Part shown: positions 2,138 through 30,947 of the stretch, piece by piece
How the letters are laid out: each line of letters opens with the position of its first letter
Position numbering within the stretch: the first letter of the stretch is position 1
From: Thermoleophilaceae bacterium
GTDB taxonomy: Bacteria; Actinomycetota; Thermoleophilia; Solirubrobacterales; Thermoleophilaceae
Length of the DNA stretch: 31,105 bases
Assembly: GCA_036280695.1 (NCBI GenBank)
Contig: DASUQG010000354.1
Location: 1 to 31,105, forward strand
Direction of reading: 5' to 3'
Made by a program: the position numbers and the translations under genes
The notes under the pieces: generated by a model
What the model was told of the DNA's origin: nothing
Databases searched by the model: none
Seen by the model: only the letters and a program-made list of their open reading frames with translations

Positions 2138-2183
2138 ATGCAGGCCGGCACCCATTCCCCTCGACCCGACCGGCGCCGACAAT
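2138..2183 (+). promoter_or_regulatory. Motif-1 promoter: ATGCAG-GCCGGC-ACCCAT, N22, GACAAT
   Basis: Palindrome at 2138-2155, -10-like hexamer at 2178-2183, ATG at 2190. Same geometry as 7 other sites. Confidence 0.75.
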
Positions 2184-2189
2184 TAGGAG

Positions 2190-2750
2190 ATGACCCACCG
2201 TACGACCCGCTGCCACCCCCGCTTGGGGCTTCGCTTCCGGGTGTGGGCAAGCGAGCATGAACTGGACGCCGCGCTCGCACACGGTAAGGATCCAGGCGCA
2301 ACCGAGGAGCTACAGCTTCGGGCGGAGCGGCTCGCCCGCCCGGAGCAACGTTTCCGCCTGGCCGACGCAATCGAGGAGCTCCTGGAGCTTGCCGGGGGGC
2401 ATGAGGTGCTCGCCAACCCCGAGGCGCTCGCGGCGGCGACCTCCCCTCAACTCCAGCTCGCGCAGATTCGGACGAGCCGCTCGGCACTGATCCAACTCGT
2501 GAACCGGCTGCGGGACAAGTGCACCGCTGACGTTCAGGGGCTGGCGCAGGTCCGCTGCCTGCTGAGTGACGACCGTGGCCCCCTCTATCACCGCGACGCG
2601 TCGGCTTCGTTGGACGAGGCGGTCGCCGCCGCGATCGGCGGCCTCGATCGCCGCGATCGTGGGCCCGCTCGATCACGCCTGGGGCATTCGGATCGGCTGA
2701 ATATGGACGTTTGTGCCCATGGTGGGACGGGGCTCGGGAGGCGACGATGA
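2190..2750 (+). CDS. Hypothetical protein, paralog of 29696..30199
   Basis: Shares LD..L..G.DP....L..RA..L and L..L..RL.D....DV.G.A....L.SD..GPLY with the ORF at 29696..30199. Preceded by motif 1. Confidence 0.75.
   Translation: MTHRTTRCHPRLGLRFRVWASEHELDAALAHGKDPGATEELQLRAERLARPEQRFRLADAIEELLELAGGHEVLANPEALAAATSPQLQLAQIRTSRSALIQLVNRLRDKCTADVQGLAQVRCLLSDDRGPLYHRDASASLDEAVAAAIGGLDRRDRGPARSRLGHSDRLNMDVCAHGGTGLGRRR
2703..2748 (+). promoter_or_regulatory. Motif-1 promoter: ATGGAC-GTTTGT-GCCCAT, N22, GACGAT
   Basis: Palindrome at 2703-2720, hexamer at 2743-2748, ATG at 2755 after a 6-nt gap. Lies inside the 3' end of the upstream ORF. Confidence 0.7.
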
Positions 2751-2754
2751 AGTC

Positions 2755-3267
2755 ATGACCTCGACCGATCACATCGATCATCCCCCGTCCGCGGACCGTG
2801 ACGGTCCGCTGCTCATCGGCTACGACGGATCCGAACATGCAAAGCACGCGATTGCGAGCGCTGCAGGCCTGCTCGCCGCAAAGGATGCGATCGTCCTGAC
2901 CGTCTGGCAGCCGGTCTCCGACGTCGGCGCCTTCGCCTGGTACGGGGCGGGTCCAAACATGGTCAATTTCGCCGAGCTCGATCGCGCAGGGGCCGAAGCC
3001 GGCGGGCGCGTCGCCGAGGAGGGCGCTCAGATCGCACGGGAGGCAGGCCTACGGGCCGAGGCCATCGCCATCGAGGCGACCCCGCCCGTCTGGAAGACGA
3101 TTGTCGATACCGCCGATCTCCACGACGCGGCAGCGATCGTGATGGGCTCGCGTGGGCTTTCGGGGCTCCGCTCGCTGCTATTGGGCAGCGTCTCGAACGC
3201 TGTCGTGCACCACGCCGACCGTCCGACACTGGTCATCCACCGCCCCGGCGACGACCACGAGGACTGA
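2755..3267 (+). CDS. Universal stress protein (USP)
   Basis: LLIGYDGSEHAKHA at the N-terminus and IVMGSRGLSGLRSLLLGSVSNAVVHHADRPTLVI at the C-terminus. Start moved from 2713 to the ATG at 2755 based on the promoter position. Confidence 0.92.
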   Translation: MTSTDHIDHPPSADRDGPLLIGYDGSEHAKHAIASAAGLLAAKDAIVLTVWQPVSDVGAFAWYGAGPNMVNFAELDRAGAEAGGRVAEEGAQIAREAGLRAEAIAIEATPPVWKTIVDTADLHDAAAIVMGSRGLSGLRSLLLGSVSNAVVHHADRPTLVIHRPGDDHED

Positions 3268-3316
3268 TTCTCAGCGCGCGCCACGCATCTTGACCCGAGA
3301 CCCCCGGAGGTGCCAG

Positions 3317-3664
3317 ATGACCCACCCCGTCTACCCCGCTCCGACCAGAGACCTGGCCGCTCGCCGTGCGGAGCTTGCGCCCGCCACCCAGGACGCCTTC
3401 GAGGCCTTCAGCAGGCAGGTGTTCGCCGAGGGAGCCCTGTCAGAGAAGACCAAGCAGCTGATCGCCGTGGCCGCGGCCCACGTGACGCAGTGCCCTTACT
3501 GCATCCGCAGCCACACTCGGTGGGCGCAGCGCAAGGGCGCCAGCGACCAGGAGATCATGGAGGCGATCTGGGTGGCGGCCGAGATGCGCGCCGGCGGCGC
3601 CTATGCCCACTCGGTGATCGCCCTGGAGGCCACCGCAGCGAGAGCGGAAGGCGACGGCCACTGA
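3317..3664 (+). CDS. Carboxymuconolactone decarboxylase / AhpD-like protein
   Basis: GALSEKTKQLIAVAAAHVTQCPYCIRSH contains the CxxC motif. GGAGG RBS precedes the ATG at 3317. Confidence 0.9.
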   Translation: MTHPVYPAPTRDLAARRAELAPATQDAFEAFSRQVFAEGALSEKTKQLIAVAAAHVTQCPYCIRSHTRWAQRKGASDQEIMEAIWVAAEMRAGGAYAHSVIALEATAARAEGDGH

Positions 3665-3673
3665 CAACCCGGC

Positions 3674-4279
3674 TCAGCCGCCCGGAGCTCGCGAGTCGAG
3701 CTCGAACGTTTCGACGAGGAGCCCGGTGAGGTCGAGGGGATCGACGCGCATCGCGATCCCTCCGTTCTCCCCGCGGGGCCATTCAGTGTCGGGGCGGTCG
3801 ACCATCAGCTCGACCCCGTTGCCGTCCGGGTCGCGCAGGTAAACGGCGATGTTCACCCCGTGGTCCGTCGCTCCCTGCAGTTCGTGACCGGCCTGCAGGA
3901 TGCGGACAACCACCTCGGCGAGCGCAGCCTCGTCTGGTAGACGCAGCGCGAAATGATGGAGCCCGGCCGCCCCAGGCGGTGCGGCCCGCGCAGCCGTGCC
4001 CCAAACGTTCAGGGCGAGGTGGTGGTGGTACTCGCCGGCCGCGAGAAAGACCGACTCTGCGTCTCGCTGGGTTACGTGGAGCCCGAGCACGTCTCGGTAG
4101 AAGGCGAGGGAGCGCGCCAGGTCGGTGACCCGAAGGTTCACGTGACCGACATCGGCGCCCGCGCTGATCTCGCGTGACTCGAGAACAATCTCGCCCACGT
4201 CGCCCGCGCCTGGCAGGCGGCTGTCGGGATGTCCGCGAAGCGGATCGTTCCCGCTCGGCTGGCGGAGCGGGGCGGCCAC
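3674..4279 (-). CDS. VOC / glyoxalase family protein (CatE-like); start uncertain
   Basis: VGHVNLRVTDLARSLAFYRDVLG, AAGEYHHHLALNVW, GLHHFAL, DHGVNIAVYLRDPDGNGVEL. Confidence 0.88.
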   Translation of the reverse strand: MAAPLRQPSGNDPLRGHPDSRLPGAGDVGEIVLESREISAGADVGHVNLRVTDLARSLAFYRDVLGLHVTQRDAESVFLAAGEYHHHLALNVWGTAARAAPPGAAGLHHFALRLPDEAALAEVVVRILQAGHELQGATDHGVNIAVYLRDPDGNGVELMVDRPDTEWPRGENGGIAMRVDPLDLTGLLVETFELDSRAPGG

Positions 4280-4281
4280 CG

Positions 4282-4665: not shown

Positions 4666-4669
4666 TGGT

Positions 4670-6672: not shown

Positions 6673-8064
6673 TTACGCGCGCTCGGCAGTCGTGCGGTAG
6701 CGCTCGACGAGCTCCGGCGTGATCCGCTTGAGCTCGCCGGCGGGGAATGCCGCGAGCAACTCCCACGCGAGGTCGAGCGTCTCGATGATCGAGCGCCGCT
6801 GGGTGTCCTGCCCAACGAAGCGCCGCTCGAACTGGTCGACGAAGGCGAGGATGCGGCGGTCGTCGTCGGAGAGCGCCTGCTCGCCGACGATCGAGATCAG
6901 GTTCCGCAACTCGCGGCCGCGCCCGAGGAATGCGGAGATCTGATCGGCGACGCCTCGGTGGTCCTCGCGCGTGTTCCCGTCGCCGATGCCGGCGTTCATC
7001 AGACGGCTGAGAGACGGGAGCACGTCGATGGGAGGCGCGATCCCGCGCCGGTCGAGCTCGCGCGAGAGGACGATCTGGCCCTCGGTGATGTAGCCGGTCA
7101 CGTCGGGTATCGGATGCGTGACGTCGTCGTCGGGCATCGAGAGGATGGGGATCTGCGTCAGTGAGCCCGGCCGGCCGCGGATGCGCCCCGCGCGCTCGAA
7201 CAGCGAGGCGAGATCGGAGTACATGTAGCCCGGATAGCCACGCCGGCCCGGCACCTCGTCGCGAGCGGCGGCAGCCTCGCGCAGCGCCTCACAGTAGTTC
7301 GTCATGTCGACGAGTACGACGAGGACGTGCATTCCGCGCTCGAAGGCGAGGTACTCCGCAGCTGTCAGGGCGGCGCGCGGGCAACTGATCCGCTCCGCTG
7401 CGGGCTCGTCCGCGCGGTTCACGAACAGCACGGAGCGCTCGAGAGCGGCACCCTCGGCGAAGCGCGCGCGCAGGAAGGCGGCCTCGCGATCTGTCACGCC
7501 GATCGCGGCGAAGACCACCACGAACCCCTCGTCCGATGAGGGCACGCGCGCGCTCTCCGCGATCTGCGCAGCCAGTTCGAGCCCCGGCAGGCCGTAGCCG
7601 GAGAAGACCGGCAGCTTCTGGCCGCGGACGAGCGTATGCAGCCCGTCGATCGCCGAGATCCCGGTCTCGATGAACTCGGCCGGATGCGCGCGTGCCACCG
7701 GATTCACCGGCCGCCCGTTGAGGTCGCGCTCCGCCTCGGGCAGAAGCTCGGGCCCGCCGTCGGCGGGCCTGCCCATACCGTCGAAGATCCGCCCGACGAG
7801 GTCGGGACCGACCGGCATGCGTGCCGCGCGGGCGCGGACGAGCACCGCCGTGGAGTCGATGTCGAGCCCGCGCGTGCCGCCGAGCACCTGGACGACCATC
7901 CGGTCGCCCTCGATCTCCAGCACCTGGCCCAGCCGTCGCTCCCCGGAGGGAGTGACCACATCGACGAGCTCGTCGTACGCGACGTGCTCCGCGTGCTCGG
8001 CAATCAGCAGCGGGCCCGACACGTACGTGGTGGTGCGATGTTCGGTCGTGTACAGCCGCGTCAT
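6673..8064 (-). CDS. ntpB: A/V-type ATPase subunit B
   Basis: Start MTRLYTTEH at 8064. ETGISAIDGLHTLVRGQKLPVFSG, DMTNYCEALRE, PGRRGYPGYMYSDL, THPIPDVTGYITEGQI, LPSLSRLM. Confidence 0.96.
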   Translation of the reverse strand: MTRLYTTEHRTTTYVSGPLLIAEHAEHVAYDELVDVVTPSGERRLGQVLEIEGDRMVVQVLGGTRGLDIDSTAVLVRARAARMPVGPDLVGRIFDGMGRPADGGPELLPEAERDLNGRPVNPVARAHPAEFIETGISAIDGLHTLVRGQKLPVFSGYGLPGLELAAQIAESARVPSSDEGFVVVFAAIGVTDREAAFLRARFAEGAALERSVLFVNRADEPAAERISCPRAALTAAEYLAFERGMHVLVVLVDMTNYCEALREAAAARDEVPGRRGYPGYMYSDLASLFERAGRIRGRPGSLTQIPILSMPDDDVTHPIPDVTGYITEGQIVLSRELDRRGIAPPIDVLPSLSRLMNAGIGDGNTREDHRGVADQISAFLGRGRELRNLISIVGEQALSDDDRRILAFVDQFERRFVGQDTQRRSIIETLDLAWELLAAFPAGELKRITPELVERYRTTAERA

Positions 8065-9815
8065 CCGACGGCCTCCAGTTCGCGCTCGATGTCCTTGATC
8101 AGCTCGGCGGCGCGCTCCTCCGCCTGCTCGGCAGGCCACTCGTGCATCCGCGCGAGCGCCGCCAGCGACGGTGCCGCGCCGGCTTCGTCAACCGGTGCGC
8201 CGCGGGTCACCGCGGCGCTCATGGCGGCGTCGGTACGCCGGATCGCCCGCAGCATCGCCAGCTGCTTGGGCGCAGCGCAGTAGGCGTCGCGCTCGTCGAA
8301 CGCGGACTGCTGGAGGAAGTCCTCGCGCAGCAGTCGACCGGTGCGGAGCGTGAGGCGCTCGGGCGGCGCCAGCGTGTCAGGGCCGAGGAGCTGGACGACC
8401 TCGAGCAGCTGCGCCTCGCGCTGGAGCAGCTCGCGAGCCCAGGCGCGCTGCTCCTCCCAGTCGGCCGCCACCTCGCGCTCGAACCAGGCCGCGAAGTCGA
8501 AGAGCGTGTAGCTGCGGTTCCAGTCGATCGCGGGGAAGTGCCGCTGGCGAGCCAGAGTGGTGTCGAGCGCCCAGAACGTGCCCGCCAGGCGCAACGAGTG
8601 CTGCGTGATCGGCTCCGAGAAGTCGCCACCGGCCGGCGAGACCGCGCCGATGATGGTCACCGAGCCCTCGCGGACATCGGATCCCAGGCAGCGGACCGCG
8701 GCAGCCCGCTCGTAGAACTCGGCGAGCCGCGACGACAGGTACGCGGGATAACCCTCCTCGGCCGGCATCTCCTCGAGTCGGCTGGAGACCTCGCGCAGCG
8801 CCTCGCCCCAGCGGCTCGTCGAGTCGGCCATCAGCGCGACGTGGTAGCCCTGGTCGCGGAAGTACTCCGCCAGCGTGACGCCGGTGTAGATCGACGCCTC
8901 CCTGGCAGCGACCGGCATGTTGGACGTGTTCGCGATCAGGATCGTGCGCTCCATCAGGGACGCACCGGTGCGCGGGTCGACGAGCTCCGGGAACTCCTGG
9001 AGCACCTCGGTGAGCTCGTTACCGCGCTCTCCGCACCCGACGTAGATCACCACGTCGGCGTGCGCCCACTTGGCCAGCGACTGCTGGAGCACGGTCTTGC
9101 CGGTGCCGAACCCGCCGGGGATCGTCGCGGCTCCTCCGCGCGCGAGCGGGAACAGGACGTCGATGGCCCGCTGCCCAGTGATCAGCGGCGTCGACGCATC
9201 GAGACGGCCGGCAGCCGGGCGCGGGTCCCGGACGGGCCAGCGGCTCAGCATCTTGAGCGGCTGATCGTCGACCCATACGACCGGGTCGTCCAGCCGCGCC
9301 GGGCCGCGGCGGACGGCTGTGACGACTCCGGCGGTATCCACGGGCACGAGGATCCGGTGCTCGAGTGCTCCCTCGGCGACGATTCCAAGTACGTCCCCGG
9401 CTACCACGGAGTCCCCCGTCGCGACACGCGGCTCGAACGCCCAGGTGCGCTCGCGATCGAGCGCGGGCACGTCGCTGCCGCTTGAGAGCAGCGGCTGCCC
9501 GAACGGGTCGTCCCCGGCTCGGGCGAGCACGTCGAGCGGGCGCTGGGTCCCATCGAAGATGCGGCCGAGCAGGCCGGGACCGAGCTCGACCTCCAACGGA
9601 CGGCCGGTGTCCAGCACGGGCTCGCCGACCCGCAGGCCCGCAGTGTCCTCGTAGACCTGGATCGTGACCCGCTCGCCCTCGAGGCGAATGACCTCGCCTG
9701 GCAGGGCCGCGTCACCTACGCGCACGACGTTGTACAGCCGCACGCCGTCGAGGCCGCGGGCAACCACCACGGGGCCGGCCACCCGCCAGATCTCGCCGTG
9801 CGAGCCGGTCGTCAT
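8061..9815 (-). CDS. ntpA: A/V-type ATPase catalytic subunit A
   Basis: Start MTTGSHGEIWRVAGPVVVA at 9815. P-loop GGFGTGKT, GCGERGNE, ANTSNMPVAAREAS, DSTSRWGEALRE, EEGYPAYL. The longer 832-aa ORF is a spurious extension. Confidence 0.97.
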   Translation of the reverse strand: MTTGSHGEIWRVAGPVVVARGLDGVRLYNVVRVGDAALPGEVIRLEGERVTIQVYEDTAGLRVGEPVLDTGRPLEVELGPGLLGRIFDGTQRPLDVLARAGDDPFGQPLLSSGSDVPALDRERTWAFEPRVATGDSVVAGDVLGIVAEGALEHRILVPVDTAGVVTAVRRGPARLDDPVVWVDDQPLKMLSRWPVRDPRPAAGRLDASTPLITGQRAIDVLFPLARGGAATIPGGFGTGKTVLQQSLAKWAHADVVIYVGCGERGNELTEVLQEFPELVDPRTGASLMERTILIANTSNMPVAAREASIYTGVTLAEYFRDQGYHVALMADSTSRWGEALREVSSRLEEMPAEEGYPAYLSSRLAEFYERAAAVRCLGSDVREGSVTIIGAVSPAGGDFSEPITQHSLRLAGTFWALDTTLARQRHFPAIDWNRSYTLFDFAAWFEREVAADWEEQRAWARELLQREAQLLEVVQLLGPDTLAPPERLTLRTGRLLREDFLQQSAFDERDAYCAAPKQLAMLRAIRRTDAAMSAAVTRGAPVDEAGAAPSLAALARMHEWPAEQAEERAAELIKDIERELEAVG

Positions 9816-10153
9816 TGCCCGCCGCCTTCCTGGCCGAAGGTGATCTCGTACCCGACCGCCTGGCGCAGCATCTGGAGCAGCTGTTCCCGGCGGTCCTGGG
9901 ACTCCTCGACCGTCGTTCCTGCTGGAAGCGCCACCACGAGCGGCGTATCGAGAGCGTCGAGCCGCCGCCGGAGCGGCCGCTCGAGCGCGTGGAAGTACGG
10001 AGCGTGGACCGCGATCACGCCGTCCTCGTGCTCCACCAGCTCCTCGAGCCGAGCGGCGGTCTCCGCGGGCGAGGCGACCTCGAGCGCAGCGGCGCCGGCC
10101 AGCCGGTAGCCGGCCGCCAGCTCTCGCGTCGTCAGGACGAGTAAGCGGCTCAT
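9812..10153 (-). CDS. ntpF: A/V-type ATPase subunit F
   Basis: MSRLLVLTTRELAAGYRLAG matches the GFRLAG-type signature; ends LRQAVGYEI. 4-bp overlaps with both neighbours. Confidence 0.88.
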   Translation of the reverse strand: MSRLLVLTTRELAAGYRLAGAAALEVASPAETAARLEELVEHEDGVIAVHAPYFHALERPLRRRLDALDTPLVVALPAGTTVEESQDRREQLLQMLRQAVGYEITFGQEGGGQ

Positions 10154-11226
10154 GCGCGCGCCTCCGGCATGAGGAGCTCGCGACGGACCACCTCGGGGTG
10201 GATGCCGCGCACGCTCGCCTCGCCAAGGAGCCGGAGGTTCCGCGCCTCGGTCTGCTTGGCGGCGGTGAACGCGATCGGCACGTCGAGCGTGAGCGGGTCG
10301 CCCATGCGGAACAACGCGGCGGCGTCCGCGATGCGGCGCCGCTCCAGCTCGCGTTCCAGGGCGGGAAGGTCGCCGCTCCGCGCCCACCGCTCGAGCGAAG
10401 CCTGCCAGTCGCTGCCGGCACTGCGCGGGAGCGCGCTGATGACCGCGGCCGGCGCGGGGGCGCGCACGGCCGCCACGAAGCGAGCGAGCGGAACTGACCC
10501 GCCCGGAAGCAGCGCGCGCTCCGGCACCATGTCAACGGCGGCGCCCGAAGCCCGGGCATCGTGCACCCGCAGCGCCACTAACAGGTTGCGCTCGTCGATT
10601 GCCCGCCGCGCGAACCGCAGCAGCGTCCGGGCGTCCGGCCCGGCGGACGCGAGCGTGGCGGTCACGTGCGCGGCGTGGGCGGCGAGGACAGCGTGCTCGA
10701 GCGCCGCGAGGTTCCCCGTGCGTTCGAATTCGCCGAGCGCCGTACGTAAGGCGCCGGTCTGCTCGGTGTCTGGGATCCGGCGCAAGATCAGGTCGACCGC
10801 GCCCGCGAGCTCCGGCCCGCGAAGGATCTCGCTGGCGAGCGGCTCGACCAGCCAGCCCACCGGCAAGAGCGAGGCAAGCGCCTCGTCGGCCGGGCGCTGT
10901 GTGCCCGCCCGGGCGCGCAGCATGAGGACGACGTTCTCGACGTCGAAGCGCGAGAGCATGAGGTTGACGAGCTCGCGCGCCCGGTCGGCATAGAAGCCGC
11001 GCATCTCCTCGAGCGATCGGCCAAGGTGGGCTCTGATCGCCTCGTGGAGGCGACGAAGACCTGTCTCGTCGCGGGCCAGCACGATGTCGGACGCGTACGG
11101 GGTTCGCTCGAGCGCAGCGAGGAGGGCATCGATGTCCTCGCCGAGAAGCTGCTCGTAGTCAGCGACGTCCAGCAGCGCCGCACGGCGTGCGTGCAGACGC
11201 GTATTGCCGTAGACGAAGTCGCTCAT
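10150..11226 (-). CDS. ntpC: A/V-type ATPase subunit C (d/AC39)
   Basis: Starts FVYGNTRLHARRAALL; RFDVENVVLMLR; C-terminal EARNLRLL. Size and operon position also fit. Confidence 0.88.
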   Translation of the reverse strand: MSDFVYGNTRLHARRAALLDVADYEQLLGEDIDALLAALERTPYASDIVLARDETGLRRLHEAIRAHLGRSLEEMRGFYADRARELVNLMLSRFDVENVVLMLRARAGTQRPADEALASLLPVGWLVEPLASEILRGPELAGAVDLILRRIPDTEQTGALRTALGEFERTGNLAALEHAVLAAHAAHVTATLASAGPDARTLLRFARRAIDERNLLVALRVHDARASGAAVDMVPERALLPGGSVPLARFVAAVRAPAPAAVISALPRSAGSDWQASLERWARSGDLPALERELERRRIADAAALFRMGDPLTLDVPIAFTAAKQTEARNLRLLGEASVRGIHPEVVRRELLMPEARA

Positions 11227-11783
11227 TTGAGCCTTTCCGCGAAGCGCTGGCGGAGCAGCAGCTCGGCGTTGGCAAGTCGCTCCTCGAGCGTGTCCCGGAT
11301 CGTTCGCCCGTCATCGCTCGCCAGCTCGACGCCACCCCAGGTGTCGAGCGTCGGCTCGATGCGGAGATCGGGGGCAACAGTGCCGGCGAGGTCGGCATCG
11401 AGCGGGTCGACGTGGAGCTCGCACGCATTTGGCAATCCGGCCCGGCTCTCGGCGACGAGCGCGTGGAAGAGCTTGGGGTAGGCGCTCGTCTCGCGCACGG
11501 CAGCGAGCTCGGCCCGGATCCCGGACAGCAGCGACAAGAATGCCTGCTCGCGTGCCGACCGAACAGTGGCCGCGGCGTCGAGGCGCGCCAGGGCAAGCTC
11601 ATGCGCGGCCGCGCGGCGACCCTCGGCCGCGCCCGCCTCGGTGAGCTCCGCCTCGAGCGCCCGAGCGTCGCGGCGGGCGTCCTCGACCACGGCTGCCGCC
11701 GCGGCCGCCGCCTCGTCGGCGGCGCGAGCGCGGTCCGCATCCGCCTCGGTCTCGATGGCTCGCAATAGGTCCCTGAGCGCCAT
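11223..11783 (-). CDS. ntpE: A/V-type ATPase subunit E
   Basis: Ala/Glu-rich coiled-coil N-terminus and C-terminal WGGVELASDDGRTIRDTLEERL. Confidence 0.85.
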   Translation of the reverse strand: MALRDLLRAIETEADADRARAADEAAAAAAAVVEDARRDARALEAELTEAGAAEGRRAAAHELALARLDAAATVRSAREQAFLSLLSGIRAELAAVRETSAYPKLFHALVAESRAGLPNACELHVDPLDADLAGTVAPDLRIEPTLDTWGGVELASDDGRTIRDTLEERLANAELLLRQRFAERLK

Positions 11784-11785
11784 GG

Positions 11786-12001
11786 TCAGAGCAGCACGAT
11801 CAGCATTGCCGCCACCGCGAAGCCGAGGATGACGAGGGTCTCGGGGATAGCCACCAGCAGGATCGCGCGACCGGCCATCTCGGGCCGCTCAGCGATCAGC
11901 CCCATCGCCGCCGCGCCGATGCGCGCCTGCGCGTAGCCGGTCGCGAGGCCGGCGAGCCCGACCGCCAGCGCCGCCCCGATCGCAATCAGTCCTGTCTCCA
12001 T
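11786..12001 (-). CDS. ntpK: A/V-type ATPase proteolipid subunit K/c (single hairpin, 71 aa)
   Basis: METGLIAIGAALAVGLAGLATGYAQARIGAAAMG...AIPETLVILGF, with one conserved Glu. GGAG RBS. Confidence 0.93.
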   Translation of the reverse strand: METGLIAIGAALAVGLAGLATGYAQARIGAAAMGLIAERPEMAGRAILLVAIPETLVILGFAVAAMLIVLL

Positions 12002-12012
12002 CTTCTGCTCCT

Positions 12013-13944
12013 TCAGCTCGTGGGTTGGGTATCGGCGCCGGGTGGGCGCCCGAAGGGTGTGAACTCGCGGCCGCCGCCGACGAAGAACGTGTCGAAGAAC
12101 TCGACGTAGTGGAGGCGCAGCGCCTGGATCGTGGGACTGAACGCGGCCAGGGCGACGTTCATCGCGTGGAAGAAGGTCGCGACGAGCACGCCCATCCAGA
12201 TCGGACCGATCGTCCCCAGCTCGTTGGCGACGGCCGCCAGGTGTGCGGACGCCAGCCCGACGGCCGCGATCCGGAGGTAGGAGAGCACCTTGCCGAGCGT
12301 GCCGATCAGCTCCAGCGGGCCCGTGATCATGCCGATCGCCCCGTGCAGTGACATCACGAGAACCACCCCGACGACCGCTGCGGCCACCGCGGGGGTGAGG
12401 GCGCCGGACGGGAGATGGCCAGCCGCCCACCCGGCGAGGCCGAACAGGCCGCCGAGCACGAGCAGCACGCCGAGCTTGTCGAACAGCTCGCGACCCTCCC
12501 CGAAGCGGATCGCCTCCAACGCGCCCAGTGCGAGCCCGAGGACCACGTGGGCTGCGCCCATCGCTACGGCGAGCAGGAGCAGCGGCTCGAGCGTGTCGGC
12601 GGCGGGCCTGTAGCGCCACACTGCCCAGTCTCCGAACACCCGCTGGCCGAGATCCCCGAAGAGCTCGCCGAACAGGACGCCGAAGACGATCGACCACACC
12701 GCGCCCGCAACCAGGACCCAACTGAGGCGCGCGAGAAGCGGCGTGCGCACGCGATACGCGCGACGGGCGACGAGCGCGATGGCCAGCAGCACCGCGCCGT
12801 AGCCGACGTCTCCGACCATGGCCCCGAACATCAGCGGGAGGAACAGCGCCATCATGAGCGTGGGGTCGAGCGCGCCGGCGCGCGGAAGCTCGAGGAAGCT
12901 GACCAGCGGCTCGAACGGGCGGGCGAGGCGCGAGTTCCGCATCAGCACCGGCGCGTCGGGGTCGCGTGGGGAGGGCGCCGTGTCCTCGACGACGACCGCC
13001 GTGCCGAGCCGAGCCTCGACCTCCTCGCGCAGCGCCGCGAGCTGGCGGCGGGGCACCCAGCAGTCGGCGATGAAGGCGCGCTGTGTGACGCCCACCCGTC
13101 CGACGGCCTCGAGCCGCTCGAGCTCACCGGCGATGCCCGCGCGCAGCTCACGGAGCCGCCCGGCATGCGGCACCAGCAGCGCCCGGCGCCGGTCTTCGGC
13201 AGCGGCGATCGCCTGCGGGAGCTCGGCCAAGCGGCGCTCGATCGCGTCGACGGCTGCGTGCAGCGAGAGATGCTCGAACGCCTCGGGGAGCGCGACATGG
13301 CGAACCTGCGCGCGCCCGAGCAGCGCCTGCACGGCGGCGCGGTCGGCGTAGGGGAACACGATCAGGCAGCCGATGGCGCCCGCCTCGATGCGCGTCGACA
13401 GCAGCGCGAACTTCTTGCCGAGCTCCTCGCTCAGCTGCCCGCGGAGCGTCTGCACCACAAGCTCGTCCTCGGTGTTGAGCACCAGCGCGACGGTGCCCAG
13501 TCGAAGCTGGCGAAGAGCCTCGTCGTCGAGCTCGGCGAGCTCGGGAACCAGCGGCAACAGCCGCCGCAGCGGCTCGAGATAGCCGGGAAGCACGAGACGC
13601 TCGTCGCGGAGCGCCTCCAGGCACCGCCGCAGCTCATCGACAGGGGTGGAGATTCGATCGAGCTCATCCTTGAGCGCGTTGAGATCGAGCGCGTGCTCGA
13701 CCCTGTCCGCCTGCCCCGCGCCTGCCGCGTCGAGCTCCGCCAACAGGCCGTCCGCCTGCGCCGCGAGGGAACGGAGATCGTCGCGGCGCGACGCACGCAG
13801 CTTCTCGCCGCGCAGTCCCTCGATCCCGTTCGCACCCCGGGCGTCGGCGATCTCCACGCGTCCGAGACGCTGGAGCTCGGTGACGGCGCGCTCGACCTCG
13901 CGGCGGGGGCCGAGTATCTGGGCTTTCGTCATCGGTACGAGCAC
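12013..13944 (-). CDS. ntpI: A/V-type ATPase subunit I (a)
   Basis: Soluble N-terminal half, then LDPT...FLPLMFGAMVGDVGYG, multiple TM segments, essential Arg in LSYLRIAAVGL, and IQALRLHYVEFF. Confidence 0.95.
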   Translation of the reverse strand: MLVPMTKAQILGPRREVERAVTELQRLGRVEIADARGANGIEGLRGEKLRASRRDDLRSLAAQADGLLAELDAAGAGQADRVEHALDLNALKDELDRISTPVDELRRCLEALRDERLVLPGYLEPLRRLLPLVPELAELDDEALRQLRLGTVALVLNTEDELVVQTLRGQLSEELGKKFALLSTRIEAGAIGCLIVFPYADRAAVQALLGRAQVRHVALPEAFEHLSLHAAVDAIERRLAELPQAIAAAEDRRRALLVPHAGRLRELRAGIAGELERLEAVGRVGVTQRAFIADCWVPRRQLAALREEVEARLGTAVVVEDTAPSPRDPDAPVLMRNSRLARPFEPLVSFLELPRAGALDPTLMMALFLPLMFGAMVGDVGYGAVLLAIALVARRAYRVRTPLLARLSWVLVAGAVWSIVFGVLFGELFGDLGQRVFGDWAVWRYRPAADTLEPLLLLAVAMGAAHVVLGLALGALEAIRFGEGRELFDKLGVLLVLGGLFGLAGWAAGHLPSGALTPAVAAAVVGVVLVMSLHGAIGMITGPLELIGTLGKVLSYLRIAAVGLASAHLAAVANELGTIGPIWMGVLVATFFHAMNVALAAFSPTIQALRLHYVEFFDTFFVGGGREFTPFGRPPGADTQPTS

Positions 13945-13947
13945 GCT

Positions 13948-14286
13948 CTATGCCCCCACATGCAGCAACAGCTCCGTGAGCTCGGCGATCAACGGTTCGC
14001 GGTCGGCGGACGAGCGCCGGCGGAGCTCCTCCGCCCGAGCGATGCCGTCGGCGCGGATCGCGGCGGCCTCCGCCTCCGCCTCGGCCACCAGCGCGCTCTG
14101 GCGACCGCGGGCCGCCTTGCGCCCGGCCTCGCGCGCGCTCGCGAGCAGGCGATCAGCCTCCGCGCGGGCCGCGGCGAGCGCGTCCTCGGCCACGTCACGC
14201 GCGCCGTCGCGCTCCTCGAGCGCGCTCTCGAGTCGCTGGACGGCTGTCAGCGCATCGAGTGGCGGAGGATCCCTCTGGACAGTCAT
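13948..14286 (-). CDS. Probable A/V-type ATPase peripheral stalk subunit G/H
   Basis: 112-aa Ala/Glu/Arg coiled coil (AARAEADRLLASARE...AEAEAEAAAIRA) directly upstream of subunit I. Assigned by position and composition. Confidence 0.7.
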   Translation of the reverse strand: MTVQRDPPPLDALTAVQRLESALEERDGARDVAEDALAAARAEADRLLASAREAGRKAARGRQSALVAEAEAEAAAIRADGIARAEELRRRSSADREPLIAELTELLLHVGA

Positions 14287-14921
14287 CGCCCGACACCCGC
14301 CAGGGCGCCCTTGGAGCGCATGCGACGCAGCCGCACGCGATCCTCCATCTCGCGCTCCTCGAGGACCAGCGCGATGCGCGCGCGCTCTGCCTCGAGCCTC
14401 GGGACGACCACGTGCTCGAGCGCGTTCATCCGGCGCGTGGTTCGCGCGATCTCGTTCGCAAGCCGGCGTACCGAGAGCTCTAGCGCCGCAACGTCGAGCA
14501 GCCGGTCCAGCACCGCCTCGAAGCGCTCGGCCACGCTGTCGATGCGCGCGGTCGTGCCCGCGAGGCTGTAGCCGCGATCAGTCCGTGCCCGGGCGACTGT
14601 GCCCTTCGCGATCTCGACGACCCCGATCCCGGCCACGTTCCGCGTCTGCAGGCTCAGCTCGACCTCCCCCTGGGCGGCGAACGCCGCCGACTCGACCGGC
14701 TCGAGGCCACTCGCGGCGACCGTCAGCCCGAGGAACCGCCCGGCGTCGGCCGCGTCACGGTCGAGCACGTCCAGCGACTCGAGGGCCGAGGCGCCGAGGT
14801 GATTGAACTCGCGCACCAACGCGCTGCGTCGCTCCTTGAGCAGGTCCCGCCCCTGAGCGGCAAGCCGGATCTCCGCCTTGCGGGCGAGCAACTCGCTCCT
14901 CGTCGGACTCACTGGGGCCAT
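14283..14921 (-). CDS. ntpD: A/V-type ATPase subunit D
   Basis: PTRSELLARK...QGRDLLKERRSAL; LANEIARTTRRMNALEHVVVP; LEERE. Start placed at the ATG at 14921 because the 14930 ATG lies inside the -10 hexamer. Confidence 0.93.
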   Translation of the reverse strand: MAPVSPTRSELLARKAEIRLAAQGRDLLKERRSALVREFNHLGASALESLDVLDRDAADAGRFLGLTVAASGLEPVESAAFAAQGEVELSLQTRNVAGIGVVEIAKGTVARARTDRGYSLAGTTARIDSVAERFEAVLDRLLDVAALELSVRRLANEIARTTRRMNALEHVVVPRLEAERARIALVLEEREMEDRVRLRRMRSKGALAGVGR

Positions 14922-14928
14922 ACACGAC

Positions 14929-14974
14929 ATCGTGCACCCCGGCCGTCCTCGCGACTATGGGTCTGAATACCGAT
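14929..14974 (-). promoter_or_regulatory. Motif-1 promoter of the ATPase operon: ATCGGT-ATTCAG-ACCCAT, N22, CACGAT
   Basis: The plus strand at 14957-14974 reads ATGGGT-CTGAAT-ACCGAT, the best palindrome of the set. The -10 is at 14934-14929 and the ATG at 14921. Confidence 0.8.
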
Positions 14975-16239: not shown

Positions 16240-16285
16240 AGCGTGCCGACGCGAGGACTCCTACGGTATGGACGAAACCGCCCAT
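16240..16285 (-). promoter_or_regulatory. Motif-1 promoter: ATGGGC-GGTTTC-GTCCAT, N22, CACGCT
   Basis: Palindrome at 16268-16285, hexamer at 16245-16240, ATG at 16231. Faces the CMD-osmC pair. Confidence 0.6.
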
Positions 16286-16618: not shown

Positions 16619-18346
16619 TCAGAGGCTGCGAGGCGCGATCGGCTGCGCCACAGTGCCGGCGGCCGAGTGCGCCGCGCCGACCTCGCGCCGGATGTCTTTC
16701 ATGGGTTCGACGCTGCGCACTCTCGGGATAACGTCGAAGTTGTTCGGGGGCGGCGGGGACTGGGTGAACCACTCGAGGGTGTTGCCCTGCCACGGGTCGT
16801 TCCCGGCCCGCGGGCCGTGCCTGCTGCTCCACAGCAGGTTCACCACGACCATCACCACGCCGATGGCGAGCACGAACGATCCGATGGTCGAGATCAGGTT
16901 GTAGGTGGACACGCCGAGCGACGAGTCGTAGTCGTAAATGCGTCGTGGCATTCCCGACAGGCCCGCCGAGTGCTGGATCAGGAAGGTGACGTTGAACCCC
17001 ACGAACATGGTCCAGAACGACAGCTTGCCGAGCGCCTCCGAGAACATCCGGCCGGTGAACTTGGGGAACCAGTAGTAGAGCCCGCCCATGAGCGCGAAGG
17101 CGGAGCCTCCGAACAGCACGTAGTGGAAGTGGGCGACGATGAAGTAGGTGTCGTGCAGGTACCAGTCGACAGGAAAGATGGCCATCATCACGCCCGTGAT
17201 GCCGCCGATCGGAAACAGCGCGAGGAAGCCTGCCGCGAACAACAACGGTGTCTTGAGGAGGATCGAGCCGCGCCAGAGCGTGGCGATCCAGTTGAAGATC
17301 TTGATGCCGGTCGGCACCGCGATCGTGAACGACGAGAGCATGAAGAACGCCAGCACGACGGTCGGCGTCGGGGTCGCGAACATGTGGTGCGCCCAGACCA
17401 GCGCACTGAGGAATGCGATCGCCACGGTCGAGACCGCGATCGCCTTGTAGCCGAAGATCGGCTTGCGGGCGAACACCGGCAAGACCTCCGAGATGATGCC
17501 GAACGCGGGCAGCACCATGATGTAGACCTCGGGGTGGCCGAAGAACCAGAACAGGTGCTGCCACAGCAGCGGGTCGCCGCCGGCGGAGGGGTCGAAGAAG
17601 CCGGTGCCGAAGTGGCGGTCTGTGAGCAGCATGGTCACCGCGGCAGTGAGCGACGGGAGCGCCAGGATCAGCAGGTAGGCGTAGACCAGCATCGACCAGA
17701 TGAACAGCGGCAGGCGGCCCCAGCTCATACCCGGTGCCCGCATGTTGTGGATCGTGGCTACGAAGTTGATCGCGCCGAGGATCGAGGACAGGCTGGTTAG
17801 GTGCACCATCATGATCCACGCATCGATCCCGCCGCCGGGCGAGTAGGCGTCGTCGGAAAGCGGTGCGTAGGAGGTCCAGCCCGCCTGCGGGGGCTCAAAG
17901 AAGAGGCTGGCGTAGAACACGACGCCGCCGAACAGCAGTAGCCAGAACGAGAGCGCGTTCAGCTTCGGGAACGCCATGTCGCGGGCCCCGATCATCAGCG
18001 GCACCAGGTAGTTGCCGAAGCCGGCCCATATCGGCACGAGCGACAGGAAGATCATCGTTGACCCGTGCATGGAGAGGAGGCCGTTGTATGTCTCCGGGTC
18101 GATCAGCGTGTTGTTGGGCGCCGCGAGCTGTGAGCGCATCAGGAGCGCCTCGACTCCGCCCAACAGCAGGAACAGCACGGTGAGGACCAGGTACATGATC
18201 CCGATCCGCTTGTGGTCCGTCGTCGTAAGCCAGCCGAGCCAGCCGCGCGGCTCCGACCTCAGCCCGTGCAGGGCCAGCTCGGGACGCGCGGTGGCTGACC
18301 CCGTGCGTGTCGAGGCATGCGCTGACGTCGAGAGCCGCACCTTCAC
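16619..18346 (-). CDS. ctaD: Cytochrome c oxidase subunit I (heme-copper oxidase, A1 type); start approximate (GTG at 18346 or 18340)
   Basis: TTTDHKRIG, SMHGSTM, GARDMAFPKLN, WFFGHPEVY, VWAHHMF, IAVPTGIKIF, VAHFHYV, GMPRRI. The track's 660-aa ORF includes a non-homologous N-terminal extension. Confidence 0.95.
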   Translation of the reverse strand: MKVRLSTSAHASTRTGSATARPELALHGLRSEPRGWLGWLTTTDHKRIGIMYLVLTVLFLLLGGVEALLMRSQLAAPNNTLIDPETYNGLLSMHGSTMIFLSLVPIWAGFGNYLVPLMIGARDMAFPKLNALSFWLLLFGGVVFYASLFFEPPQAGWTSYAPLSDDAYSPGGGIDAWIMMVHLTSLSSILGAINFVATIHNMRAPGMSWGRLPLFIWSMLVYAYLLILALPSLTAAVTMLLTDRHFGTGFFDPSAGGDPLLWQHLFWFFGHPEVYIMVLPAFGIISEVLPVFARKPIFGYKAIAVSTVAIAFLSALVWAHHMFATPTPTVVLAFFMLSSFTIAVPTGIKIFNWIATLWRGSILLKTPLLFAAGFLALFPIGGITGVMMAIFPVDWYLHDTYFIVAHFHYVLFGGSAFALMGGLYYWFPKFTGRMFSEALGKLSFWTMFVGFNVTFLIQHSAGLSGMPRRIYDYDSSLGVSTYNLISTIGSFVLAIGVVMVVVNLLWSSRHGPRAGNDPWQGNTLEWFTQSPPPPNNFDVIPRVRSVEPMKDIRREVGAAHSAAGTVAQPIAPRSL

Positions 18347-18365
18347 ATCGGGATGGTTGGCGACC

Positions 18366-18821
18366 TTACAGAGACTCGGGCGTGCGTGGCCCCTCGGAAT
18401 GGCGGGCGCGCCCGGTGCTGAGGTGCCGTCGAGCTGGACCGCCGGCCGGCGCGTGAGCGATTCGAGCCGGTAGGGGGGAAGGTCGCGCCCTTTCAATCGA
18501 CGATGCGCCTGGCCGTCTACCGGCCCTGAGCCGACGCTCAACCGGGTTGCTCTCATCGCACGCTCGGCCGCCGGGGGCCTGCCCTTCCGCATCGGGCTCA
18601 TCGCCCTCAGACAGCGCCGCGCCGACCGCGCTCACCAGTACTGCGATCGCGACGATCAGGTACAGGACAGCGAGCCCCAGTACCCAGCCGGCGTCCGTCA
18701 GGCCCAGCAGCGCGACGGGCGCGACCACCAATCCGAGGCAAACCGCGCTGACGATCAGCAGAGCCGGGTAGCCTGCCGTCTCCGCCGCGCGGAGGGAATT
18801 GAGGATGGGGTTGCCTCGCAT
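18366..18821 (-). CDS. Small two-TM membrane protein with a low-quality tail
   Basis: MRGNPILNSL, then two long hydrophobic stretches (PALLIVSAVCLGLVVAPVALLG; WVLGLAVLYLIVAIAVLVSAVGAAL). The last ~70 codons use many A/T-ending codons. Confidence 0.5.
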   Translation of the reverse strand: MRGNPILNSLRAAETAGYPALLIVSAVCLGLVVAPVALLGLTDAGWVLGLAVLYLIVAIAVLVSAVGAALSEGDEPDAEGQAPGGRACDESNPVERRLRAGRRPGASSIERARPSPLPARIAHAPAGGPARRHLSTGRARHSEGPRTPESL

Positions 18822-18937
18822 CGAGGTCTCCCGGAGTCGGGGACTCGGTCGCCTCCCATGCTCGAGGGTCAAGGCGCTTGCTCCTATCCGGACAAAGGAC
18901 CATCCGTGCTGAGGCTGTGCGGCCTGGGCTGGGCTGG

Positions 18938-18955
18938 ATGCACCCTGAGACCCAT
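18938..18955. promoter_or_regulatory. Motif-1 palindrome ATGCAC-CCTGAG-ACCCAT, upstream of a motif-2 promoter
   Basis: Matches the 18-bp pattern but has no -10 at N22. Its centre lies 61.5 nt before the patatin ATG. Confidence 0.55.
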
Positions 18956-27491: not shown

Positions 27492-27537
27492 ATGCAGGCT
27501 GGTACCCATTCACATCGCGCCCGCGGGCGGCGACCAT
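27492..27537 (+). promoter_or_regulatory. Motif-1 promoter: ATGCAG-GCTGGT-ACCCAT, N22, GACCAT
   Basis: ATG at 27545 after a 7-nt gap. Near-identical to the 2138 site over about 25 bp. Confidence 0.75.
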
Positions 27538-27544: not shown

Positions 27545-27949
27545 ATGGTCCACCACGACATCAGCCGGCCCAGATCCGGGACTTCCGGACCGAATTCTGC
27601 CGTTGCGCAGGCCACGCTTGATCGCATACTCGAGCTGTTCGAACGGCGCAAGCTTTCCGCCACGGAACTGCGCGTACTGCTTGCCCTGATCGATCGCGGA
27701 GCGGGGGTGTCGGATCTGGCCGAGGCGCTCGATCAGAGCCCCGATGAGATCACCCGCGTGGGCCGAAGCCTCTCCATGCGCGGGCTGATCCGCTGGCATC
27801 ACGTGGGCCCGCGCAAAGAGACGCGTTTCGACATCACCAGCGCCGGGTTGACGACGGCGCGCGCGCTGCTCACAGCGGTCGGTGCGACCGACGCTGACGC
27901 TGACAGACCCGAGGCGGCCACGACGACATCTCCACTACGTGCTACGTGA
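27545..27949 (+). CDS. MarR-family winged-helix regulator
   Basis: LSATELRVLLAL, VSDLAEAL, ITRVGRSLSMRGLIR, FDITSAG. Confidence 0.8.
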   Translation: MVHHDISRPRSGTSGPNSAVAQATLDRILELFERRKLSATELRVLLALIDRGAGVSDLAEALDQSPDEITRVGRSLSMRGLIRWHHVGPRKETRFDITSAGLTTARALLTAVGATDADADRPEAATTTSPLRAT

Positions 27950-28485: not shown

Positions 28486-28539
28486 CGCCTCATTCTCCTC
28501 GTCTTAGTCAGTCCGTGATGGGGAGGCCTTGGCCTTCGT

Positions 28540-28585
28540 CTACATCCCTACACCCATAGAAGCCGAGGCGCCTCCGCTTCAGCAT
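28540..28585 (+). promoter_or_regulatory. Motif-1 promoter (weak distal half): CTACAT-CCCTAC-ACCCAT, N22, CAGCAT
   Basis: Proximal half-site and spacing are conserved. Lies between divergent USP genes. Confidence 0.55.
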
Positions 28586-28611
28586 CGGGGGCACACCGGA
28601 AGGGAGACGAC

Positions 28612-28707
28612 GTGGCAGCGATCAGTTGGAACGTGCTCTGGGTCGGCGTCGGCTGGGCGCCGGCCCGCGCAGGCGCCCCCGACAAGTGTCAGGGCAGCCG
28701 GCGATGA
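28612..28707 (+). CDS. Possible 31-aa leader ORF coupled to the tandem USP
   Basis: GGGAG then GTG at 28612; MAAISWNVLWVGVGWAPARAGAPDKCQGSRR. Its TGA overlaps the USP ATG (ATGA, 28704-28707). Confidence 0.35.
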   Translation: MAAISWNVLWVGVGWAPARAGAPDKCQGSRR

Positions 28708-29699: not shown

Positions 29700-30199
29700 G
29701 CCGCGCGTTGAAGCTGCCAGCCGCCCGCGCCTGGCTCATCGAGCGCCATGCGGGCGGAGCGGAGAGCGTGACGGAGGTCGCCCTCCCGATAGAGCGGGCC
29801 TTGCGTGTCGCTGACCAAACGGGCCGTCATGGCGGCACCGCGCACGTCGATCGGACGCCCGTCGCACAGACGCTCTATGAGCGGGACGAGCTCGTCGAGG
29901 TTTCGCTTGAGAGCTGTGCGCCTCGGTCGTGCTCCGACTGTCAGGAGCTCACGAGTACGGCCGGCAACCAAGGGGTCAACGAGCGTGTTGGCGAGCCCAG
30001 CCCGTACGGGTTCGGAACGAAGCTGCGACGCACGCACGCTGAGGTCCGCGCTGGCGCGTGGGTCGGCACCCGCTGAGAGCTCCTCGTCAAGCTGCTTGCG
30101 TCTCCATCGGGTCCGCATCCGCGCCGAGGGGCGAGAAGGCTCGCGGGCGGGGCGCGGCGGCGTGTCGAATTCGGGGAGTGGGAACGGCCCGAGCGGCAT
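29696..30199 (-). CDS. Hypothetical protein, paralog of 2190..2750
   Basis: QLDEELSAGADPRASADLSVRASQL and LIERLCDGRPIDVRGAAMTARLVSDTQGPLY. AGGAG RBS and a motif-1 promoter. Confidence 0.78.
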   Translation of the reverse strand: MPLGPFPLPEFDTPPRPAREPSRPSARMRTRWRRKQLDEELSAGADPRASADLSVRASQLRSEPVRAGLANTLVDPLVAGRTRELLTVGARPRRTALKRNLDELVPLIERLCDGRPIDVRGAAMTARLVSDTQGPLYREGDLRHALRSARMALDEPGAGGWQLQRAA

Positions 30200-30228
30200 G
30201 ATGGTCTCCTTTGGTCGCGGTAGCCACC

Positions 30229-30274
30229 ATCGTGCGCTGCGGGCCGTGCGTTCCCTATGGGTACGAGTGTGGAT
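30229..30274 (-). promoter_or_regulatory. Motif-1 promoter: ATCCAC-ACTCGT-ACCCAT, N22, CACGAT
   Basis: Half-site at 30262-30257 and -10 at 30234-30229, followed by a short leader with an RBS. Confidence 0.72.
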
Positions 30275-30319
30275 TTCTGGTCCTGCGCGGACCCCACCGG
30301 CCCGCCTGGCCCGCGCGAG

Positions 30320-30895
30320 TCACGCCCCGCCCGTCGCCTTGGGCGGCATCCTGACGGCGACGAGCCGCACCCTGCGGGATCGACCATCCGGCAGGTCGAT
30401 CGTCGCGACCGCTCCCGCCCTCGCGCCCATCAGCGCCTTACCCATGGGCGAGGCCGCCGAGATGGCGTCCGGGGTCAGTGTCTGATGGGCGCCGGACAGC
30501 CGGTGGCGACTTCTCAGCCCGGACTCGAGGTCCTCGATCGTCACCGTCGCCCCAATCACGGCCGTGCCGCGCCTCGCGTTCTCGGCGTCGACGACCACGG
30601 CGCGGTCGATCGTGTCCTCGAGCGCAGCCAGGCGCGCTTCGAGCACCATCTGCTCCTCGCGTACGTCGTGGTACTCGTCGTTGTTCGAGCCCTCACCGTA
30701 CGGCCGCGCCTCGCGCAGCCGCTGCTCGACGTAGTTGCGCGTCTGCCGGCGGAGTCGCTCGAGCTCGCTTTGCAGCTCGTCCAGGCCGGCGGCGGTCATG
30801 AGCGCCGCGCCGGGCGGGTACGGCGGGCGGCCGTTGGCATCCCGGCCGTCGCGGCGGGTGTTCACGGTTTCAGCTGTCGGGGTGTGCGTTGTCAT
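30320..30895 (-). CDS. GreA/GreB-family protein with an atypical acidic tip
   Basis: LMTAAGLDELQSELERL...EARPYGEGSNNDEY..REEQMVLEARL..LE; C-terminal AVIGATVTIED, ISAASPMGKALMG. Confidence 0.88.
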   Translation of the reverse strand: MTTHTPTAETVNTRRDGRDANGRPPYPPGAALMTAAGLDELQSELERLRRQTRNYVEQRLREARPYGEGSNNDEYHDVREEQMVLEARLAALEDTIDRAVVVDAENARRGTAVIGATVTIEDLESGLRSRHRLSGAHQTLTPDAISAASPMGKALMGARAGAVATIDLPDGRSRRVRLVAVRMPPKATGGA

Positions 30896-30901
30896 GGAAC
30901 T

Positions 30902-30947
30902 ATCGTGGACGTCGCAAGGGCCCCCGCCCATGGGTACAGACGACCAT
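30902..30947 (-). promoter_or_regulatory. Motif-1 promoter: ATGGTC-GTCTGT-ACCCAT, N22, CACGAT
   Basis: ATG at 30895 after a 6-nt gap. Confidence 0.75.

Follow-up and report, generated by a model that had tools for sequence, protein, structure and literature searches.

A palindromic box at a fixed distance from the -10 hexamer as the probable operator of a NarL-type two-component system in Thermoleophilaceae and other Actinomycetota

Which regulator acts on a 31,105-nucleotide stretch of Thermoleophilaceae DNA in which one promoter layout recurs in front of unrelated genes? The stretch, from now on referred to as the window, is contig C354 of a metagenome-assembled genome (MAG; G000) comprising 414 contigs and 2.74 Mb, with a G+C content of 71% and a completeness of about 70%, whose closest named relatives are Thermoleophilaceae MAGs. 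The common layout consists of an 18-bp imperfect inverted repeat (the box), exactly 22 nt (N22), a -10-like hexamer and a start codon usually 6-8 nt further on. We propose that these sites are probably class II-type activator-dependent promoters of a NarL-type response regulator, here called RR1, which is encoded on contig C238 of the same assembly.

The first-pass annotation of the window had listed eight sites sharing this 46-bp layout, each directed into a gene start, and all eight were recovered as described. A further site missing from that list lies at 18903 on the reverse strand (ATGGTCCTTTGTCCGGAT-N22-GAGCAT), and homologous sites are found in two same-genus loci (L012, 12870, reverse strand; L018, 5991, reverse strand). 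The ninth palindrome reported at 18938 is present as well, and the four ACCCAT or ATGGGT copies noticed within coding regions indeed have no hexamer at N22. The sites are given below with predicted start codons and scores from a leave-one-out position weight matrix (PWM); USP stands for universal stress protein, SD for Shine-Dalgarno sequence, TM for transmembrane, ORF for open reading frame and wHTH for winged helix-turn-helix.

2138-2183, forward strand: box 2138-2155, N22, GACAAT at 2178-2183; leaderless ATG 2190 of a 186-aa protein of an unrecognised family; 23.4 bits, rank 4 or better of 5.4 million positions.
2703-2748, forward strand: box 2703-2720, N22, GACGAT; leaderless ATG 2755 of a USP; distal TGGGG about 23 nt upstream of the box; score 32.0.
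14929-14974, reverse strand: box 14957-14974, N22, CACGAT; likely leaderless ATG 14921 of V/A-ATPase subunit D, the first gene of an operon reaching down to about 6673; score 23.1.
16240-16285, reverse strand: weaker box with right arm GTCCAT, N22, CACGCT; ATG 16231 of a CMD/AhpD-like protein; score 11.2, rank about 37.
18858-18903, reverse strand: box 18886-18903, N22, GAGCAT; leadered, with SD; small two-TM ORF followed by COX1 (16619-18601); 15.7 bits.
18938-18955, forward strand: box without N22 hexamer, 34 bp from the box of the 18903 site; the equivalent box in relatives drives a 104-aa gene ('MVQLAIRC').
27492-27537, forward strand: box, N22, GACCAT; leaderless ATG 27545 of a 134-aa wHTH protein; score 29.1.
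28518-28585, forward strand: distal ATGGGG at 28518, weak box 28540-28557, N22, CAGCAT; leadered; tandem USP; score 12.3, rank about 26.
30229-30274, reverse strand: box, N22, CACGAT; short leader with SD; ATG 30199 of a 167-aa protein of an unrecognised family; score 30.7.
30902-30947, reverse strand: box, N22, CACGAT; leaderless ATG 30895 of a GreA-like protein; score 29.2.

These sites are strongly enriched over background. ACCCAT is 3.6 times as dense in the window as in the genome, and the combined pattern WTS-N10-CCCAT-N22-SANNMT has six exact matches in the window against 0.00 expected from 100 shuffles; allowing one mismatch adds the 16285 site, giving seven against 0.44. Scored by the leave-one-out PWM against 5.4 million positions outside the window, six sites reach ranks of 1-4, and the few positions that outscore them are equivalent sites on C255, C395 and C238. 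The idea of a window-wide regulon holds for about ten promoters but not for every gene, and the set extends to these three other contigs. The palindrome ATGGGT-N6-ACCCAT, proposed earlier as the shared element, is not literally present at most sites: only those at 14974 and 30947 match it within two mismatches in the window, and the eight sites carry one to four mismatches each, nearly all in the left arm, which is mostly reduced to ATG or ATC. The right arm, (A/G)(C/T)CCAT, is strong.

To place these sites in a wider context, islands from same-genus genomes and 80 loci encoding relatives of RR1 were compared. Among 252 loosely defined boxes in the related loci, selected with the downstream sequence unconstrained, a NANNNT hexamer was found at an offset of exactly 22 nt in 135 cases, while the neighbouring offsets of 21 and 23 nt yielded 9 and 11 and all others about 5 each. 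When 137 sites were anchored on the right arm and the N22 hexamer alone, the left arm emerged at a fixed 6-nt gap (A/T-T-G-G/C-G/A at positions -12 to -8 relative to the anchor, with A in 98, T in 128, G in 113, G in 86 or C in 44, and G in 79 or A in 35 sites). The dyad is therefore real, and the earlier consensus, though a poor description of most left arms in the window, is correct for the family. The consensus of these 137 related promoters is ATGGGy-N6-(A/C)CCCAT, that is GGG-N8-CCC, and perfect 18-mers such as ATGGGTGTTAGTACCCAT are found in Solirubrobacterales loci. Outside the conserved columns, in the gaps as well as in the flanks, the sites are unrelated in sequence.

The hexamer, with consensus sAnn(A/C)T, is unusual. 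A start codon lies 6-9 nt past it in 83 of 133 promoters, implying leaderless mRNAs, and the remainder have leaders of 25-60 nt. The first-pass annotation had remarked that the -10 elements lack the T at -12. This proved systematic rather than incidental: T is the first base in 1 of 133 regulon promoters compared with 133 of 259 (51%) other putative leaderless promoters of the same genome. The latter figure, obtained outside the island, indicates that the genome otherwise uses the usual actinobacterial TANNNT -10 element. A G located 2 nt after the box, corresponding to -33 if the hexamer occupies -12 to -7, is conserved in 105 of 133 promoters. Further upstream, a distal TGGG(G/T) element peaks 21-22 nt before the box start in 20 of 136 promoters, with a minor peak at 33-34 nt, and by reading, about 10 of 14 G000 sites carry it. 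At C395:13231-13270, two boxes separated by only 4 bp belong to promoters that point in opposite directions. With +1 set at the A of a leaderless ATG, the box is centred at -43.5, and the fixed N22 layout supports the earlier suggestion of a single factor acting from one class II-like position.

The first-pass annotation had noted that no such regulator is encoded in the window. For NarL- and Crp-type proteins this is the case; however, a candidate is present on C238, a 3.7 kb contig. RR1 (1162-503, reverse strand) is a 219-aa protein composed of a receiver domain and a GerE domain (Pfam Response_reg, 1.7e-28; GerE, 2e-21), and the Asp in its 'AVLDVTMP' motif aligns with D54 of DevR in 'AVLDVRLP'. 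Its partner kinase is encoded just upstream of the RR1 gene (L001:2343-1159) and contains HAMP, HisKA_3 (5.9e-16) and HATPase_c domains preceded by two predicted N-terminal TM helices. With a loop of only about 8 residues between these helices, the kinase would be left without an extracytoplasmic sensor domain, and this architecture suggests a membrane-level cue as the signal. A strong box-promoter located 46 nt downstream of the RR1 stop codon drives a 104-aa protein. A weaker box (-10 GAAGCT) precedes the kinase gene, which is why the system appears to be autoregulated.

This arrangement is conserved. Same-genus genomes repeat the order of box, kinase, response regulator, box and 'MVQLAIRC' gene, with identities of 89-95% for the response regulator, 67-72% for the kinase and about 70% for the targets. 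The kinase-regulator pair is syntenic in 76 of the 80 related loci, and the other four, one of them at a contig end, have no adjacent kinase match on the same strand. The relatives of RR1 consistently retain the recognition helix S.KTV[DEQ]RHRANxLxKLG. A genome-wide pattern search of 41 genomes returned only 2-10 matches per genome of 2-5 Mb, the reversed-pattern control giving 0-2. A match was found within about 3 kb of 25 of 29 genes encoding RR1 or RR1-like proteins of at least 67% identity, which had been identified by an independent protein search (tables read by eye). In G010, G013, G014, G016 and G019, most matches fall into a single island of 15-30 kb that also holds the response regulator gene.

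Co-localisation extends well beyond the genus. Orthologues of 68-79% identity (about 70% in Streptomyces), always accompanied by a HAMP/HisKA_3 kinase, are found in Solirubrobacteraceae, Conexibacteraceae, Capillimicrobium, Gaiellales, Streptomyces, Micromonospora and Plantactinospora. Even among the 34 most distant loci (response regulator identity of about 75% or less), which include those of Streptomyces, Micromonospora and Plantactinospora, 22 have a box with at most two mismatches within about 150 nt of the extrapolated kinase start, as read by eye. There, a second ATGGGT-like element is often located 22-23 nt upstream, and several loci have a CAsrCT hexamer at N22. Overall, 640 kb of response regulator loci contain 126 boxes with at most two mismatches, compared with 0.31 per 31 kb in window shuffles. 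The missing regulator is thus very probably the NarL/LuxR-type response regulator with the HAMP, HisKA_3 kinase on C238. The first-pass annotation had named a NarL/LuxR type as one of two options, and it is this option that co-localisation with the boxes supports in this genome, across the genus and in Streptomyces.

RR1 and its kinase could not be assigned to a named system. None of the NCBIfam equivalog cut-offs was reached by either protein, the best models (MctR/MctS, NarL, MadR and LiaS) remaining far below. Solved-structure matches of RR1 show no preference, with VraR best at 2e-37, DevR (3c3w) at 5e-35 and NarL at 4e-34, no reciprocal search being included. Protein database relatives of the Streptomyces orthologue carry generic names only ('response regulator transcription factor'), and the literature yielded neither a published motif matching ATGGGT/ACCCAT nor a named orthologue, the Streptomyces orthologue not having been mapped to an SCO number. 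A review of S. coelicolor two-component systems lists many unnamed NarL-type pairs, and this orthologue may have been characterised earlier under another name.

We hypothesize the following mechanism. The promoters would be of the sigma-70 type: the inverted repeat stops exactly 22 nt short of the -10 hexamer, whose position -12 is not occupied by the usual T. For about 60% of them, the first transcribed base would be the A of the start codon and the mRNA would be leaderless, which would place the hexamer at -12 to -7, the box at -52 to -35 with its centre at -43.5, and an optional distal box near -65.5. A subset of promoters carries an additional box or half-site, 22 nt or in some cases 34 nt farther upstream. 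The regulator would be a phosphorylated dimer of RR1. Its downstream monomer would contact sigma region 4 and recruit RNA polymerase, because the better conserved proximal half-site abuts the -35 region and the G at -33 is conserved. The system would control, besides itself, an island of 25-30 kb encoding USPs, an A/V-ATPase, a COX1 paralogue, AhpD-like, Gre-like and wHTH proteins and two families of unrecognised proteins. The base-exact N22, the absent T at -12 and the rudimentary -35 fit recruitment better than repression.

A close parallel in architecture is DosR (DevR) of Mycobacterium tuberculosis with its kinases DosS and DosT. On hspX, the DosR box is centred at -43.5 and the dimer contacts sigma-A region 4 as well as the alpha-CTD and alpha-NTD (PMC13486717). 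Tandem DosR boxes at -42.5 and -63.5 are 3 bp apart and must be in helical phase for binding to be cooperative and for activation to occur (PMC3177182). Likewise, the system described here combines a NarL-family response regulator with an inverted repeat of about 18 bp and GGG-N8-CCC spacing, a proximal box predicted to centre near -43.5 (with +1 placed from start codons) and abutting a poor -35, tandem boxes 3-4 bp apart, or about two helical turns, some of them shared by divergent promoters, and apparent autoregulation of a USP-rich regulon clustered around the regulator. By analogy with this geometry, the sites may be read as class II recruitment promoters needing a phosphorylated NarL-type regulator. 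A kinase paralogue 71% identical to the C238 kinase is encoded at C395:11639-12631, without an adjacent response regulator and beside two divergent box-promoters; this orphan is reminiscent of DosT beside DosS. Clear differences exist, however. The kinase found here has two TM helices, a short loop and a HAMP domain, with no GAF or haem domain, and the same is true of the Streptomyces orthologue. RR1 matches DevR no better than VraR or NarL, its recognition helix has the sequence KTVDRHRAN compared with KTVKNYVS in DevR, with D-R in place of the K-N of DevR, and the box, ATGGGy..rCCCAT versus GGGACT..AGTCCC, shares only the GGG-N8-CCC spacing. Finally, the targets here include the A/V-ATPase, COX1 and a Gre-like factor.

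OsdR/OsdK (SCO0204/SCO0203) of Streptomyces coelicolor is another NarL-type two-component system controlling a USP-rich region via a palindrome. Its box, AGGGCCGATCGGCCCT, is a 16-bp palindrome with GGG-N8-CCC spacing, a spacing also shared by DevR (PMC5069765). The flanking bases of the box differ from those found here, and OsdK is a DevS/DosT homologue. Streptomyces also encodes an orthologue of RR1 (about 70%) that is paired with a HAMP and HisKA_3 kinase in kinase-regulator order and therefore represents a separate system. Orthology with OsdR or DevR was rejected based on kinase type and box sequence. NarL and NarP of E. coli belong to the same family and recognise the heptamer TACYYMT, arranged in 7-2-7 sites as TACYYMT-NN-AKRRGTA. 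The right arm TACCCAT fits this heptamer and the left arm ATGGGTA its complement; however, the order is inverted here, AKRRGTA-N4-TACYYMT with a gap of 4 bp, which departs from a 7-2-7 site. NarX and NarQ further possess a periplasmic nitrate-sensing domain that the kinase here lacks. In kinase architecture, the intramembrane-sensing LiaSR/VraSR-type systems are similar, having two TM helices a few residues apart followed by HAMP, HisKA_3 and HATPase domains. VraR is also the best solved-structure match of RR1, and the kinase has a weak NCBIfam match to LiaS. The regulon described here nevertheless consists of energy and stress genes rather than envelope genes, and to our knowledge published LiaR/VraR boxes are unrelated.

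Several other explanations of the sites need to be weighed. The box could be bound by another regulator, namely a CRP/FNR-family protein, the wHTH protein encoded at 27545-27949, itself behind a box, or RR2, a paralogue of RR1; we consider this unlikely. Read from the sequence, TGGGT-N6-ACCCA has the 5-6-5 geometry of TGTGA-N6-TCACA, which had led the first-pass annotation to its CRP/FNR option, and the G000 genome has three Crp-family genes. In some distant loci (L048, L051 and L063, and L067 without a box) such a gene adjoins the response regulator gene behind the box. However, none of the three is located on the G000 island contigs and no Crp-family gene above the Pfam cut-off was found in the islands of G010, G013, G014, G016 and G019, so that the CRP/FNR class II reading was rejected for lack of co-localisation. 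The box centre, with +1 placed from start codons, is moreover -43.5 for a hexamer-to-ATG distance of 6 nt or -44.5 for 7 nt, not -41.5 as in CRP class II promoters. Some islands retain the wHTH gene as a target; its conservation is, however, only 43-65%, and it is present in 3 of 11 same-genus island stretches (L004-L014) and absent from Streptomyces loci that still have boxes. RR2 has a near-identical box of its own, but this occurs once per genome, beside the RR2 gene, and is kept in genomes lacking island-type sites. The NarL-type regulator might instead bind the box and act mainly as a repressor or roadblock, or repress in unphosphorylated form with phosphorylation only relieving this. Autoregulated NarL-family regulators with dual roles are known, yet the box lies wholly upstream of the -35 and never over the -10 or +1, the base-exact spacing in 135 of 252 boxes is not needed by a repressor, the systematic lack of T at -12 together with the absence of a full -35 is expected of recruitment-dependent promoters, and DosR is an activator at the same position; repression is accordingly improbable as the main mode of action.

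It is also conceivable that an alternative sigma factor directly recognises ACCCAT-N22-sACGAT as a bipartite promoter, the palindrome being incidental. Exact spacing is usual for sigma promoter elements, and the first -10 position shows a strict preference for G or C. On the other hand, a 22-nt spacer exceeds the 15-20 nt range of the sigma-70 family, the left arm stands at a fixed 6-nt gap from the anchors formed by right arm and hexamer, perfect 18-bp palindromes are found in distant loci, and boxes without an N22 hexamer exist (18938; L049-L059), which together make this explanation very improbable. Lastly, chance matches or a duplicated or mobile segment without regulatory role can hardly account for the sites. 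Some promoter-gene pairs are paralogous, specifically the 30274 site with its gene and the copy at C395:13248 on the reverse strand, and the 30947 site and C255:9458 with 89% identity. However, six matches were found against 0.00 expected from shuffles, flanking sequences are unrelated, and the layout precedes unrelated downstream genes and is conserved across Actinomycetota classes.

A number of observations weigh against assigning the sites to RR1. The G000 genome contains 31 GerE-domain matches, and one of them, the paralogue RR2 on C127, shares 56% identity with RR1 and has a closely similar box of its own, ATGGGGTCTCCACCCCAT. In about a third of the island boxes the right arm is CCCCAT instead of ACCCAT, which, given the similar box of RR2, makes cross-regulation or mis-assignment between the paralogues possible. 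The 16285 and 28540 sites are weaker, with leave-one-out PWM ranks of about 30-40. It should further be noted that the sites themselves served to define the search patterns post hoc, that related genomes are non-independent samples, and that the MAG is 70% complete with the candidate regulator on a different contig (C238) from the window (C354). Sequencing runs matching the window were DNA genomes and metagenomes of soil, rhizosphere and roots; no RNA runs were among them. Assignment to RR1 as an activator nonetheless remains the reading that we consider probable.

RR2 and its kinase deserve a separate remark. A near-invariant palindrome, ATGGGGTCTnCACCCCAT-N22-GAAA(C/A)T (G000 C127:1967-2012), is found at a distance of 1-2 kb from the RR2 gene in almost all genomes of the genus (G001-G024). 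These boxes suggest that RR1 and RR2 belong to sister systems whose operators are closely related and between which cross-talk is possible. Further, in L048 (2683), L051 (4676) and L063 (4709), a Crp-family gene is located directly behind a box and immediately downstream of the response regulator gene; in L067 the same Crp-family gene follows the response regulator gene and no box was found in scans. A Crp-type regulator may thus be a target of the system in these lineages.

Box-linked genes of the window encode the 186-aa and 167-aa proteins of an unrecognised family, a USP, a tandem USP, the A/V-ATPase operon, an AhpD/CMD-like protein, the wHTH protein, the Gre-like factor and a small TM protein with COX1. 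No box was found for the island genes encoding a GH15/trehalase-like enzyme, two flavin oxidoreductases, GTP cyclohydrolase I, a transaldolase and another USP. For the A/V-ATPase operon (6673-14974), tblastn searches with four of its subunits (D, I, B-type and putative A) gave no match in island stretches from eight same-genus genomes, and its box, ATCGGTATTCAGACCCAT, is near-identical to boxes before other genes in G019 and G013. The sequence looks as if the operon had been inserted behind an existing box-promoter. A 31-codon upstream ORF at 28612-28707 (GTG 28612, preceded by GGAAGGGAG) overlaps the tandem-USP ATG at 28704 by ATGA, which suggests that the two may be translationally coupled; the automatic ORF listing starts the tandem USP at TTG 28626. 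For three target ORFs, the first in-frame ATG (14930, 16285 and 30931) falls inside the -10 hexamer or the box, so automatic calls likely over-extend these genes; leaderless starts at ATG 14921, 16231 and 30895 agree with the promoter geometry. Finally, window positions 30843-31046 and C255:9360-9562 are contig ends 89% identical over 205 bp, covering the promoter and start of the Gre-like gene; the assembly break at this point is due either to a strain variant or to a diverged second copy.

Taken together, the sites most likely represent a DosR-like arrangement under a different, apparently unstudied system. More tentatively, and with considerable doubt, the system might be an unrecognised stress or dormancy switch of Actinomycetota that runs parallel to DosRS and OsdKR, in which an intramembrane-sensing kinase would respond to a membrane-level cue and govern a compact, gene-swapping island, the box, fixed 22 nt from a crippled -10, would replace the -35 element, and newly arrived operons, the A/V-ATPase among them, would enter the regulon through capture of a box-promoter cassette. 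If the assignment to RR1 is correct, a motif, a promoter architecture and a first regulon would be assigned to a two-component system that is conserved from Thermoleophilia to Streptomyces and carries only generic names in databases, a prediction directly testable in tractable Streptomyces. DosR-style class II activation, with a tandem, phased box at -43.5, would also gain an independent example, and the unusually rigid spacing and counter-selected T at -12 make these promoters a clean natural system for the study of activator-dependent leaderless transcription. For uncultured soil Thermoleophilia, it would define a co-regulated survival island comprising USPs, an alternative ATPase and oxidase, and a Gre-like factor.

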